The translations under genes were made by a program, and so were the position numbers. The notes beneath the pieces are model-generated. The model was not told the DNA's origin and did no database searches. It saw only the letters and a list, made by a program, of their open reading frames with translations. Positions 42,643-56,681 of a stretch of DNA of 64,000 nucleotides are shown in pieces. The DNA comes from Botryllus schlosseri (taxonomy: Eukaryota). The first letter of the stretch is position 1. Every line of letters begins with the position of its first letter. Location: positions 20,400,001 through 20,464,000 of the forward strand of contig CM119371.1 in assembly GCA_051294905.1 (NCBI GenBank), written 5' to 3'.

Positions 42643-42714
42643 GGGGATTTAGCTCAGCGGTAGAGCAGCTGTCTTGCAAGCAGAAGGTCACGGGTTCAAT
42701 TCCCGTACTCTCCA
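42643..42714 (+). tRNA. tRNA-Ala(UGC)
   Basis: GGGGATT...ACTCTCC-A with G3:U70 Ala identity pair, D arm GCTC/GAGC, anticodon TGC, T-arm ACGGG-TTCAATT-CCCGT, T-run terminator; two stem mismatches. Confidence 0.82.
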
Positions 42715-42783
42715 CTCTTTTTTCCGTTGAAGTGCTAATGACGCAAAGGTGGCGCAATCATTTCAATTTGATTATCACTCAGA

Positions 42784-43254
42784 ATGTGTGCTTTGAAAAG
42801 ACTGTGTTTCGAGCGAGAAAAGTTTCGGAATTGTTCTGATTCTACTATCAAAGCGGGACCGATTGACGAATCGAATCTATTTAGTTGGTGGGCAACAATT
42901 GAAGGACCCCAAGGAACGCCATACGAAAAAGGAGTGTTTAAAATATTAATAGAATATCCCACAGAGTATCCGTTTCGACCTCCGAAGATGAGATTTGAAA
43001 CTCATATATTTCACCCGAACATTAGTGTGAAAGGCACTATATGCGTGGATATTTTGCAGAAGCAATGGTCACCAGCGCTAACTACATCAACTGTGCTGCT
43101 ATCAATATCTTCGTTACTTGGCGCACCAAATCCAAATGATCCTATGAATGCGGAAAGTGCACATCTCTATCTGGAAGATAGACAACTCTACTTTAAACGC
43201 GCTCAGCAATATACCGAACGCTATGCCAGAGTCAACTGCGATTTGTCAGCGTGA
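42784..43254 (+). CDS. Ubiquitin-conjugating enzyme E2 (UBE2D/E-like), intronless, 156 aa
   Basis: GPQGTPYEKGVF, YPFRPPK, HPNI, catalytic Cys in GTICVDIL, WSPAL, PNPNDPMN. Confidence 0.96.
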   Translation: MCALKRLCFEREKFRNCSDSTIKAGPIDESNLFSWWATIEGPQGTPYEKGVFKILIEYPTEYPFRPPKMRFETHIFHPNISVKGTICVDILQKQWSPALTTSTVLLSISSLLGAPNPNDPMNAESAHLYLEDRQLYFKRAQQYTERYARVNCDLSA

Positions 43255-43439
43255 TTACAATTATTAAAACTATCATTTGCTTGTGACTTGTTTATGCCTT
43301 GTAAATATTAATTGTGGAGCCCCACCTTTGTAATAAAAAAAACTCCATAATGTATCTTTGTTGGTTATATGAAAAATAGCGCGAGTTAGTGATTTATTCA
43401 CGAAGTTGCACTGGTCTGATGCAGCTTGTATTGTGCGCT

Positions 43440-43512
43440 GATTCGTTGGTCTAGGGGGTATGATGCTCGCTTTGGGAGCGAGAGGTCCCGGGTTCAAATC
43501 CCGGACGAATCT
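43440..43512 (+). tRNA. tRNA-Pro(UGG)
   Basis: Perfect acceptor GATTCGT/ACGAATC, anticodon arm CTCGC-TT-TGG-GA-GCGAG, T-arm CCGGG-TTCAAAT-CCCGG, TTTT downstream. Confidence 0.88.
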
Positions 43513-43566
43513 GCATTTTGCTACTATCTAATGCGCCTCAAACACGCCCGAACACGAGTCAGTGAT

Positions 43567-43884
43567 TTATTGAGTTACGAAACGACCATCACAAAACGCT
43601 TGGAATAGGATTATATTACCAACAACAATCGCCTTGCCCTTGAAATCAATAACCAAGGACGATTTATAAAGCACACGATAATGTTCGTCTTTACAGACAA
43701 TGATATTACGCGATGGGTATGTAACACAATCTTCTATTGGTTTCACTACAATTCTATTATCATAATGGAAAAGTATACACGCATAGGGAATGGTAATTGA
43801 TCTCACGTTGGGTAATACAATCATTTCCTCATAATTACGACTCGACTCAAACTGAGCAGCAACAGAAATTCTTGCCATGGTCAT
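43567..43884 (-). CDS. Hypothetical 105-aa protein, last gene of the minus-strand structural unit
   Basis: ATGA overlap with upstream small ORF; stop lies within AATAAA. Confidence 0.65.
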   Translation of the reverse strand: MTMARISVAAQFESSRNYEEMIVLPNVRSITIPYACILFHYDNRIVVKPIEDCVTYPSRNIIVCKDEHYRVLYKSSLVIDFKGKAIVVGNIILFQAFCDGRFVTQ

Positions 43885-54538: not shown

Positions 54539-54584
54539 AGATACTAGTATCTGAAAAATATCAAGACAATAGTCAGTACATATA

Positions 54585-54989
54585 TTAGAAATTGAATCCA
54601 TATTTCAAGCGCAGTTTACATTTAATTACACCGTATAGAAACACAAACTTAATTTTTTCAAGACGCTGAATCTCAACAATGCAAGCATTCGAGTCACTAG
54701 ATAGTTTTTCAATGTCTTTCATGGTGTTTTTAATTATGTTTAGAAAATTTTTCGAGTAGTCTTGGTCAAATACTTCCATTGAAACAAGTCGATTCCACAT
54801 AGCTTCCATCTTCAAATCGTCGTCAACTAGACCTTCGATCAAAGACATAGTGTCTTGACGCGAGCGCTTTCGGCTTTCATTTTGACTCTGATATATCTTG
54901 TTCATGTCTTTTCTCGGAGCCTGCATCGTTACACTTTGATGAGGCGCGTTCATATCTAACAAGTCACTTATGTCAATGAAGTTATCCAT
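54585..54989 (-). CDS. Hypothetical 134-aa helical protein
   Basis: Intact ORF upstream of pPolB; RKRSR NLS-like motif; acceptor-like sequence before ATG. Confidence 0.7.
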   Translation of the reverse strand: MDNFIDISDLLDMNAPHQSVTMQAPRKDMNKIYQSQNESRKRSRQDTMSLIEGLVDDDLKMEAMWNRLVSMEVFDQDYSKNFLNIIKNTMKDIEKLSSDSNACIVEIQRLEKIKFVFLYGVIKCKLRLKYGFNF

Positions 54990-55072
54990 ACTGAGCTGCG
55001 AACAAAAAATATTGAATTAGCACTGTATCAACATGCATCAAAATATTAGTACTAAATCAACATGCATCAAAT

Positions 55073-56305
55073 TCATTCACATTCTTCGTAAGTACGTTTG
55101 ATATCACGAAATTTAGCATAGAAACTCATTGCATGCATATCAGTTTCTACTTCATTGCCGTTGCGAGTTTTTACTGAAGTACGATTCAATAACGAATACA
55201 GAACAGTATCACGACCATGACTATTCAATGCTTCTACTGACGGATCGTAAAGTTTATTTCCAAATTTTACGATAACAGTTTTTCCGGCAAATGATAGTGG
55301 GTACTTTTCAGTCATGATCTCAGAGCCATTTTTCACATCACAAAACATCCAGAAAGAGGCAGGCTTAATCAAGCCATAATCGCAGTTCACAGCTGTGTGT
55401 TGTACTGTCATAATAGTCTCTACTAGAGCAGCATTATTCATGAAAATACTAGCACAATTCGGAAACATACAAATAGATTTGTCGGCATCGTAATATCTGA
55501 ATGCATCCAACTTTTCCAAAGTACTCAATACATAGTTTGCTACATCACTAGTGAAAAACATATGAGTCAGCATTTCTTTACCAGAGTGACAATCACCCTC
55601 AAACCAAAAATTCGGGGCTATATCTCTGCGGTGAACATAACCTTCAATGATAGAAACAACGAGCGCAGCCCTGAGGAAATTAAGACTACGCATTTGTCCG
55701 GCATACCAAATTTCGGTGATATTTTCTTCAAGCGCAGAATACAAAAACACAGCATTTTGAATCGTGGGTTGAGGACTTAACTTCTCGATCACTTTATTGA
55801 ATTTTCGACTTCTCATATAATCACTTGCCAGAATTTCACTCGTACTGGATTCGCGCAACACTCGAATAGCAGAAATCACAGAGCGCCTACGAGCACTAAC
55901 ATTTGTTGAATCAGACGAGACACTTTGATCACTAGCTAACGATCTAATATTCGATATCATTGGCGAATCATCATCAGACAGGTCACTTAACATCGCTGTT
56001 TCTGTATCTTCTCGGGTGGACTGCTTGTTCGAAGGCGCTACACCAAAATGACCATTTTTCATGATTTTGCGTATCTCTGCACGCGTCGCTTCCGTACGAC
56101 GAATTTTGATTGGAGGACTATTCTCATCCGTACGTCGAATTTTAACAAAAGGTTGAGTGTTTTGCCAATCAAAACCTTCGCTGGTTGATTTAGCTTCACT
56201 GCTATCATCACCGGTGATGTCAATCACATCAACTTGAGTCGTACTACTTTCGTTATCTACTGCGACTTGTTCCATCTCGTCATTTACGGCTTGTTCAGTA
56301 TTCAT
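55073..56305 (-). CDS. About 410-aa protein: disordered acidic/Ser-rich N-terminus plus possible degenerate SF3 (parvovirus NS1-like) helicase domain
   Basis: NFWFEGDCHSGKEML resembles Walker A; CDVKNGSEIMTEKYPL resembles NS1 motif B'/C; Walker B acidic residues absent. Confidence 0.6.
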   Translation of the reverse strand: MNTEQAVNDEMEQVAVDNESSTTQVDVIDITGDDSSEAKSTSEGFDWQNTQPFVKIRRTDENSPPIKIRRTEATRAEIRKIMKNGHFGVAPSNKQSTREDTETAMLSDLSDDDSPMISNIRSLASDQSVSSDSTNVSARRRSVISAIRVLRESSTSEILASDYMRSRKFNKVIEKLSPQPTIQNAVFLYSALEENITEIWYAGQMRSLNFLRAALVVSIIEGYVHRRDIAPNFWFEGDCHSGKEMLTHMFFTSDVANYVLSTLEKLDAFRYYDADKSICMFPNCASIFMNNAALVETIMTVQHTAVNCDYGLIKPASFWMFCDVKNGSEIMTEKYPLSFAGKTVIVKFGNKLYDPSVEALNSHGRDTVLYSLLNRTSVKTRNGNEVETDMHAMSFYAKFRDIKRTYEECE

Positions 56306-56598
56306 TCTCAATACTCAATAACTAAAGTACGCCGTATTCGAAATACTGAGCGTATCTAAATCTATTCCCTAACGACGTCTGCGCGATACTCAACAATAAC
56401 AAAACGCAGCTGTTCGAACGTAGTGGAACTTAGCATTGATAGCTCTAAATGCGCCGTTAAAATCAATTCCCCAATGAGTTAGACAACAGTGCGTTACTCG
56501 TAGCGATTCAATCGTAATACTCTATAATATCAAAAACGCAAATGACTGCGATCTCTAAATAGTAGTCGCATAGCTGAGGCTAAACAACGCGAATAAAT

Positions 56599-56681
56599 AC
56601 TGGGTTGGCCGAGTGGTTAAGGCGTTGGGTTTAAGTTCCAATGAGCAAGTGTTCACGTGGGTTCGAATCCCACACCTAGTA
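56599..56681 (+). tRNA. tRNA-Leu(UAA)
   Basis: ACTGGGT/ACCTAGT acceptor, TGGCCGAGTGGTTAAGGC D region, anticodon TAA, long variable arm, GTGGG-TTCGAAT-CCCAC T-arm; paralogue of the palindrome tRNA-Leu. Confidence 0.88.

Follow-up and report, generated by a model that had tools for sequence, protein, structure and literature searches.

A stretch of 64,000 nucleotides from the Botryllus schlosseri genome (assembly GCA_051294905.1, contig CM119371.1, positions 20,400,001 to 20,464,000, forward strand; referred to here as the window) contains a Polinton/Maverick element of 17,829 bp that carries transfer RNA (tRNA) genes of its own. Specifically, genes for tRNA-Ala(UGC), tRNA-Pro(UGG) and tRNA-Leu(UAA) are intact, belong to the element and transpose together with it, and the pattern of their conservation indicates that they are selected cargo. 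We give about even chances to a reading in which these are heritable Polinton genes, derived from the host, that are used to supply three decoders with a uridine at anticodon position 34 (U34).

The window holds five tRNA genes according to ARAGORN, and the identical five exceed the Rfam gathering score (RF00005, 29 bits), in agreement with a preliminary description of this DNA that had named one Ala(UGC), one Pro(UGG) and three Leu(UAA) genes. Three of them have high scores: tRNA-Ala(UGC), which bears the G3:U70 pair as first described (42643..42714, + strand, 64.4 bits), tRNA-Pro(UGG), with a recoded but compensated acceptor stem (43440..43512, + strand, 60.4 bits), and a type II tRNA-Leu(UAA) with a paired variable arm, here called the core Leu gene (56599..56681, + strand, 57.9 bits). 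The other two are degraded tRNA-Leu(UAA) genes, mirror copies of each other that both score 36.1 bits and have two broken D-stem pairs each, at 28856..28938 on the + strand and 39412..39494 on the - strand. They had been counted as part of the tRNA-bearing Polinton, an assignment that does not hold, as they lie in the left and right arms of a separate palindromic element. A further claim, that of a decayed tRNA-Ala relic, is borne out by local alignment: the Ala gene matches the region 58050-58350 with a score of 37 on the + strand and 16 on the - strand, against a maximum of 24 in 500 shuffles, and this is its best non-self match in the window. The relic itself (~58158..58226, + strand) has acquired indels and lost its anticodon, and it receives no Rfam call at E<=5. 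Downstream of tRNA-Ala, a run of six T residues follows after 3 nt, and a run of four follows tRNA-Pro. Matched against the A and B box consensus of RNA polymerase III (Pol III) promoters, the box regions of the element tRNAs are equal or nearly equal to those of the host genes.

The map of open reading frames (ORFs) and Pfam domains agrees with the statement that the tRNAs sit between genes, several of them at convergent or divergent borders. tRNA-Ala lies between the ORF o125 and the gene for a ubiquitin-conjugating enzyme E2, tRNA-Pro at the convergent border of E2 and the ORF o105a, core tRNA-Leu at the divergent border of the ORF o410 and a BIR gene, and the Ala relic at the convergent border of the ORF o183 and a Death-domain gene. 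Between the core tRNA-Leu and BIR, at 56700-56900, there are repeated motifs (CAGCTGCGGC..., GTTGCGCAACG..CGAGATAAT) that could be promoter elements.

The borders of the element follow from sister copies in the 495-Mb genome, which align with the window at 41537-59365 only; in this comparison, two copies were covered at their ends and eight over the 4-kb Ala-Pro block. All three high-scoring tRNA genes and the Ala relic fall inside this span. It is bounded by terminal inverted repeats (TIRs) of 236 bp with 97% complementarity, the left one at 41537..41772 on the + strand, beginning 5'-AGTAGTATT, and the right one at 59130..59365 on the - strand, ending ...AATACTACT-3'. The ends are of the AG...CT type, and the sister copies stop at the identical base. 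Immediately outside stand target site duplications (TSDs) of 6 bp, AATGTT at 41531..41536 and the same hexamer at 59366..59371. In the three copies examined out of 11, the TSDs are all different (AATGTT in the window, ACCAGT on contig 6 and GTTTTG on contig 11), and the uninterrupted AATGTT target site is preserved in the other, left arm of the palindromic element. Perfect repeats of 857 bp at 25964-26820 and 59365-60221 were considered as the Polinton TIRs and ruled out, sister homology being confined to 41537-59365. Because a protein-primed family B DNA polymerase (pPolB), an integrase of the rve family, TIRs with 6-bp TSDs, a double jelly-roll capsid protein and an A32 ATPase are all recognizable in it, the element is, by its sequence features, a canonical Polinton/Maverick of the adintovirus-like kind. 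As such, the initial view of a Polinton with its own tRNA genes stands, the tRNAs being found in copies with different TSDs and retained across element lineages.

That the tRNA genes travel with the element is evident from their distribution in the genome. The block of Ala, E2 and Pro occurs in 11 copies including the window, with 90-100% identity, and at least 8 of these 11 have a Leu gene at the window's spacing of ~13.96 kb (40 of 419 Leu candidates were scored). There are 26 Ala-type sequences in the 495 Mb, with all 26 candidates scored: 11 at 99-100% identity (lineage 1, to which the window's element belongs), one at 93%, 13 at 86-88% (lineage 2) and one at 85%. The 14 Ala loci inspected are all located among Polinton genes, and each of the 13 lineage-2 copies has an E2 homologue within ~300 nt. 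Element-type Pro has 12 matches at 97-100% identity, counting the window's own, plus one diverged copy in lineage 3. Among the 40 scored Leu-type candidates, every inspected locus belongs to a Polinton, a palindromic Polinton derivative or a fragment of either. Host-like scores and Polinton context, and for Ala and Pro also their few copies, rule out that Ala, Pro and core Leu are pseudo-tRNAs or the heads of short interspersed nuclear elements (SINEs). The preliminary description had itself raised these possibilities, together with high copy number outside Polintons and a lack of conservation among copies; none applies to Ala, Pro and core Leu, which are conserved in other copies, but Leu-type sequences are indeed numerous outside autonomous Polintons, namely in the palindromic derivatives.

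Ala and Pro, furthermore, are retained in three element lineages whose proteins are 46-90% identical. Compared with the window, lineage 2 has 63% amino acid identity in E2, 86% in the capsid protein and 46-74% in small ORFs. Here Ala is placed between E2 and the first leftward ORF, which is the position of Pro in lineage 1, Pro is found beyond the Death gene in the one copy whose right end was covered, and the o410/BIR border is without a tRNA. Lineage 3, represented by one locus, encodes a capsid protein with 70% amino acid identity and carries a divergent Ala/Pro pair, and a lineage 1b copy has kept Ala and lost E2 and Pro. Compared across lineages, no other DNA is conserved as well as the tRNA genes, which show 83-86% identity for Ala and 89-97.5% for Pro against 68-75% for coding sequence; intergenic DNA cannot be aligned. 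Variation among eight lineage-1 copies points in the same direction on a more recent scale, with 2 of 145 tRNA sites variable against 29 of 444 intergenic sites (p = 0.017).

The changes that did accumulate have a distinctive form. The anticodons are constant, UGC in all six element variants of Ala and UGG in all five of Pro, while the adjoining stems vary, and G3:U70 is present in all ten aligned Ala variants (six from the element, four from the host), extending what had been noted for the window's gene. In these ten variants 96.7% of the Ala pairing cells are paired and 9 of 21 pairs have changed on both sides; none of 500 shuffles reaches this, and slid controls give 36-60% pairing. Two compensated pairs in the Ala T-stem arose within the element lineages. 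Pair 6:67 of Ala is C:G in lineage 3 and one of two lineage-2 variants, and is unpaired (U.C, U.U, C.C) in lineage 1 and the other lineage-2 variant. For Pro, pairing is complete (100%) in the acceptor, anticodon and T stems of the five element and three host variants, and three acceptor pairs have changed on both sides. Covariation in Leu is weak, consisting of two pairs, a level reached by 23 of 500 shuffles. Because anticodons and identity elements are conserved and stem pairs are compensated, the Ala and Pro tRNAs are seen to be selected at the RNA level, and because selection acts on the RNA, a role purely at the DNA level is disfavoured.

Comparison with the tRNA genes of the host gives the element genes an ordinary standing: as a set, the window's Ala, Pro and core Leu score 57.9-64.4 bits against 56.7-68.3 bits for the host, and by type the Rfam scores of element and host are 64.4-73.4 and 59.8-68.3 bits for Ala, 57.8-60.4 and 56.7 for Pro, and 57.9 and 62.1 for core Leu. 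The element Pro differs from host Pro(UGG) at seven positions, in G2:C71 to A:U, C3:G70 to U:A, U26 to G, U38 to A and the discriminator base from C to U. Both Pro and Leu had been proposed to have unusual but still paired acceptor stems; this proves right for Pro, with its recoded and compensated stem, but not for Leu, whose stem equals the host's except for C69 to U. The core Leu gene has kept A73 and its paired long variable arm, and judgements of this kind follow the general rules of aminoacylation identity. Pattern matches number 12 for host Ala(UGC) and 11 for the lineage-1 type, and the host's Ala is much more diverged from that of the element than is the case for Pro. Position 38 is A in all 11 element variants of Ala and Pro and U in all seven host variants.

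Host Pro(UGG) was verified at three loci, with about ten loci in the same identity class, and the host has large arrays of AGG and CGG genes. These tandem arrays of tRNA-Pro(AGG/CGG) have a period of ~171 nt (C1:30754500-30761499 and a second locus), and in some members the anticodon is mutated and called 'Leu(tag)' by ARAGORN. Genes of the host-type Leu(UAA) are few, with four exact pattern matches and one with a single mismatch, and the flanks of the host copy that was fetched are unrelated to the element. One host-type gene (C1:38826000-38827999) lies ~250 nt from a fragment resembling eukaryotic large-subunit rRNA (270 bits, model positions 2445-2988). In consequence of the element copies, 26 of the 38 Ala(UGC)-type sequences found are element-borne (26 element-type versus 12 host-type), and for Leu(UAA) at least 30 element-type genes among the 40 matches scored stand against about five of host type.

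In the reading to which we give even chances, the tRNA genes would have been taken from the animal host long ago and would then have evolved with the element. Transcription would proceed by Pol III from the internal A and B boxes, and the products may be processed and charged like host tRNAs and used in translation. Their job would be to secure or raise the supply of U34 decoders, which read GCA/GCG, CCA/CCG and UUA/UUG, while the element expresses genes rich in A and T at third codon positions. This case is clearest for tRNA-Leu(UAA), of which the host has only about 4-5 genes.

Codon usage was compared between 20 Polinton ORFs (4,975 codons) and 20 host kinase domains without introns (5,303 codons), the latter taken from the top 24 kinase matches after one ORF's second domain, two near-identical duplicates and one partial match had been dropped. 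Protein-kinase domains in long intronless frames (up to 1,644 aa) are frequent in this genome, with a large cluster on contig 3 at 16-21.7 Mb. The GC content at third positions is 0.378 in the element and 0.514 in the host sample, and the element has higher shares of TTA (0.222 versus 0.137, p = 6e-4) and GCA (0.284 versus 0.204, p = 0.026). The translational supplementation suggested at the outset retains its premise of an element rich in A and T at third positions and enriched in two of the codons, but the share of the third, CCA, does not differ significantly (0.246 versus 0.223).

Several observations, the CCA result among them, weigh against supply as the purpose of these genes. Ordered by excess share, TTA, GCA and CCA come only 13th, 14th and 25th among 59 codons, CAA, GAA, GTA and CGA are more enriched, and the three tRNAs can read 9.0% of the codons in the element against 9.4% in the host sample, which is itself small and drawn from one gene family. 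The genes are also not flawless: the lineage-1 Ala has mismatches at U6.C67 (or U.U) and G27.A43, the window's copy of Pro carries one additional G, private to it, in the D-loop, and core tRNA-Leu is followed by TTT only, with the first TTTT 277 nt downstream (56958). The near-identical lineage-1 copies are young, so that their identity alone says little, and recombination could be an alternative reason why Pro is so similar in lineages 1 and 2. On the codon counts, supplementation is weakly supported; codon compensation may apply best to Leu, as a possible rather than a strong explanation.

The weakness of the codon bias is one of the points that speak for a different, though unlikely, function, in which the element's tRNAs would be defence-resistant private variants that escape a host or element activity cleaving, depleting or disabling the host tRNAs, as in phages. 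The body of the element's Pro is almost identical to that of host Pro(UGG), and the changes are placed at the compensated pairs 2:71 and 3:70, the discriminator and positions 26 and 38, while A38 instead of the host's U38 is a parallel change in two unrelated tRNAs. Other cargo that may manipulate the host is aboard (Bcl-2, BIR, Death and E2), and the countering of tRNA depletion is raised as a possible role for tRNAs of polinton-like viruses (PLVs) in PMC12220804. Against this, no tRNA-targeting enzyme was recognized in the element by Pfam, PHROGs and one Atlas look-up, a host nuclease not having been sought, the acceptor stem and anticodon loop of Leu are nearly those of the host, and the argument is drawn throughout from substitution patterns. 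A more specific version appears similarly improbable: a private tRNA set made distinct from the host's, through the acceptor end and discriminator of Pro and through A38, would keep viral translation going when tRNAs are cleaved, depleted or withheld, or under a shutdown imposed by the element itself. If true, such a set would parallel, in a eukaryote, the tRNAs by which phages evade anticodon nucleases, and as a side effect, element families would supply most of the tRNA-Ala(UGC) and tRNA-Leu(UAA) genes of the genome.

The placement of the genes at the borders of transcription units (Pro and the relic at convergent ones, Leu at a divergent one) raises the question whether they act mainly as DNA. 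Barrier activity of tRNA genes is established in yeast and mammals, and here TFIIIC and Pol III bound at the A and B boxes might form chromatin barriers or insulators between the accessory arms and the core and thereby slow silencing. The E2/o105a border, which has Pro in lineage 1 and Ala in lineage 2, has kept a tRNA in place without keeping its identity, and the integrase bears a chromodomain. However, a role of the DNA only would leave unexplained the constant anticodons, G3:U70 in ten of ten variants and the compensated acceptor and anticodon pairs outside the A and B boxes, and in lineage 2 the o410/BIR border lacks a tRNA. We regard this as a doubtful explanation in its own right, although a boundary role could coexist with a tRNA role.

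It is very unlikely that the genes are functionless passengers, acquired together with host DNA and still present owing to the young age of the copies. Such a history would suit sister copies that are 90-100% identical, an Ala gene that is already a relic, the two degraded Leu genes of the window's palindrome and a core Leu gene without a T4 terminator. It is already disfavoured by the retention of Ala and Pro in three lineages with such divergent proteins and unalignable intergenic DNA, by the compensatory changes in tRNA stems, by a tRNA variability below that of intergenic sites and by the lack of matching host source genes for the lineage 2 and 3 tRNAs among the matches listed. Least probable of all is that the genes serve as RNA-processing signals or small-RNA precursors, with RNase P and Z sites that set the termini of mRNAs or free small RNAs from the sequence downstream, by analogy with murid herpesvirus 68 and its tRNA-like genes: the tRNAs do lie between genes on the strand of the accessory genes and core Leu without a near terminator may yield longer transcripts, but processing signals need neither conserved anticodons nor aminoacylation identity elements, Ala and Pro have terminators directly downstream, and the weak match of Pro to the mascRNA/menRNA model (26.3 bits, below the gathering score of 42.5) amounts to general tRNA likeness.

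The proteins encoded between the TIRs fit the assignment of the element. Adjacent to the left TIR, a Bcl-2 family gene (41779..42282, + strand, PF00452, E 7.6e-20) is followed by o125, a 125-aa ORF recognized by sequence comparison as conserved in lineages 1b and 2 (42242..42619, + strand), and by the E2 gene (42784..43254, + strand, PF00179, E 1.9e-48). On the - strand, three small ORFs of 105, 105 and 150 aa (43567..44754) form a virion-module block, a relative of the 150-aa ORF adjoining the capsid gene in metagenomic contigs. The product of 44751..46028 (- strand, 425 aa) is, as far as its modelled structure indicates, a double jelly-roll major capsid protein. Specifically, only seven relatives were found in a large protein collection, one of them named 'Major capsid protein', and an AlphaFold model (pLDDT 71.5, pTM 0.72) retrieved with Foldseek those of Sputnik, mavirus, an iridovirus and PBCV-1 as structural matches (E 2.5e-15 to 1e-13, TM scores of 0.46-0.62). 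ORFs of 122, 249 and 273 aa (46079..47992, - strand) have no Pfam or PHROGs match and are candidate minor virion proteins. The rve integrase with its C-terminal chromodomain (48149..49162, - strand; PF00665, E 2e-13; PF00385, E 6.1e-10) and an A32/FtsK-type packaging ATPase (50047..50778, - strand; PF04665, E 1e-9) come next. An adenain-like cysteine protease and a penton protein have no recognized gene, the small ORFs having no Pfam or PHROGs match and no structure search having been made for them; PHROGs gave no match for 13 unassigned ORFs.

The 1309-aa ORF at 50672..54601 (- strand) was identified as pPolB by its motifs and relatives. By the standard definitions of family B motifs, Exo I (DFES, ~387), Exo II (NSARYD, 505) and Exo III (YNESD, 635) as well as Pol A (DANSLY, 739), Pol B (KLCGNSAFG, 1039) and Pol C (GDTDS, 1139) can be read in the sequence. 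At a cut-off of E<=1e-5 there are 230 relatives; the majority of those listed bear the PF03175 annotation, and several come from lancelet genomes at 34-36% identity. The ORF itself has no Pfam polymerase match, and a sequence search of the PDB returned zinc fingers only. A C2H2 zinc finger is located in its N-terminal part near residues 319-339 and an insert around residues 800-880, and some relatives bear the source name 'very short patch repair endonuclease'. Towards the right end, o410, a 410-aa ORF (55073..56305, - strand), has a lead to superfamily 3 helicases (Parvo_NS1/E1) from an Atlas look-up with a score of 0.90, which is weak and to be taken as a lead only. The remaining cargo comprises the BIR/IAP gene (57044..57430, + strand, PF00653, E 7e-11) and the Death-domain gene (58555..58839, - strand, PF00531, E 2.6e-11). 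Four host-like regulators are thus aboard the Polinton: Bcl-2, ubiquitin E2, BIR/IAP and a Death-domain protein.

The Polinton sits inside the right arm of a second element, a palindrome over its whole length of 16,423 bp, the main part of which lies at 25964..41536 and the outer end of the right arm at 59372..60221. The repeats 25964-26820/59365-60221 are 100% complementary, the next pair is 26806-32349/36001-41544, and the pairing continues in nested fashion to a centre near 34343. The element is flanked by its own TSD (GGCAGT, 25958-25963 and 60222-60227) and has Polinton-like termini (AGTAGTGTAGC...). Because the arms hold only a 113-aa ORF, the degraded tRNA-Leu(UAA) and a Bcl-2 gene each, and nothing else, it is non-autonomous. 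An assembly artefact is ruled out by its own TSD and termini, by an asymmetry of the arms (a SINE-like insertion in one, the Polinton in the other) and by related copies elsewhere. In these related palindromes, pairs of tRNA-Leu genes stand ~9.46 kb apart (at least seven pairs among the 40 matches scored), and the genes are intact, with 60.6 bits. The arms of related palindromes are 99.6% alike within a copy and 99.0-99.3% between two copies, and across the palindromic family the identity of arms within a copy is 99.6-100%. Our guess is that such elements are snap-back products of one Polinton end that are mobilized in trans.

Other repeats are present in the window as well. The SINE-like insertion, 319 bp at 32350-32668 and present in the left arm only, has a tRNA-like head, a (CAA)n tail and duplicated TCGAGAGGC flanks, and a stretch of 130 nt at 23991-24120 is related to it. 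Direct repeats of ~0.9 kb with 82-95% identity, 38.3 kb apart (23081-23976 and 61359-62282), flank the nested elements; the repeat also occurs inverted at 12185-13134 and probably belongs to another repeat family.

tRNA genes carried by viruses are already known, and those of phages and giant viruses fit codons that the virus uses more than its host or resist host anticodon nucleases. By contrast, the fit to codon usage is weak for the present genes, which reside in an animal and have internal Pol III boxes. The closest setting is provided by the PLVs and virophages of protists, for which PMC12220804 reports 558 tRNAs (Rfam) in 8,300 genomes, discusses codon compensation and the countering of tRNA depletion as roles, and cites Bailly-Bechet et al. 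2007 for viral tRNAs that match virus-favoured codons. As judged from that source, these are likewise capsid-encoding integrating elements of ~20 kb from the same broad virus realm that carry tRNAs, but mostly with other replication and integration genes, whereas the present element combines pPolB, rve, TIRs and a 6-bp TSD. It has three tRNAs in 17.8 kb, conserved between lineages with compensated changes.

Adintoviruses share with the present element pPolB, a retrovirus-like integrase, a capsid protein and a packaging ATPase, and have Bcl2 and IAP homologues as accessory genes (Starrett et al. 2021, PMC8502044). In the passages covered, the sole mention of tRNA is in the Fig. 6 legend and concerns MELD viruses, which have other replicases and are treated under non-animal datasets, and tRNAs are not described as a feature of animal adintoviruses, unlike in the element here. 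Bracoviruses, with 3-7 predicted tRNAs per genome (PMC2646287), also have tRNA genes in integrated, virus-derived animal DNA; they are large, segmented, domesticated polydnaviruses unrelated to Polintons, and that article treats Mavericks and tRNAs separately. No description of tRNA genes in animal Polintons/Mavericks was found in the full-text literature, papers in subscription journals (for example, the original Polinton/Maverick descriptions) and supplementary tables being outside this scope.

A distant relative was found by scanning metagenome contigs with a three-sequence capsid alignment, which yielded four contigs that share 95-97% identity and represent a single virus; a capsid search of a viral contig collection gave no match. 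This virus has 26% amino acid identity with the window in the capsid protein, 38% in the integrase and 32% in the ATPase, and a GC content of 49-50%. In three of the four contigs, a tRNA-Met(CAU) that scores 71.2 bits and has a T5-T6 run behind it stands between the capsid module and the ATPase; the fourth ends inside the capsid gene.

Taken together, the analysis provides what its sequence evidence indicates is a verified and delimited case of conserved, functional-looking tRNA cargo in lineages of animal Polintons. Animal Polintons/Mavericks are increasingly viewed as real viruses (adintoviruses). Three tRNAs located beside Bcl-2, IAP, Death and E2 genes and kept through divergence point to a manipulation of both host translation and cell death. 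Element-borne tRNAs, furthermore, inflate and distort tRNA gene counts, as they do here for Ala(UGC)-type genes. The element-specific Pro variant offers a marker by which the transcriptional activity of integrated Polintons could be followed in tRNA sequencing, and as such it could separate codon supply from counter-defence as the role of tRNAs in eukaryotic viruses.

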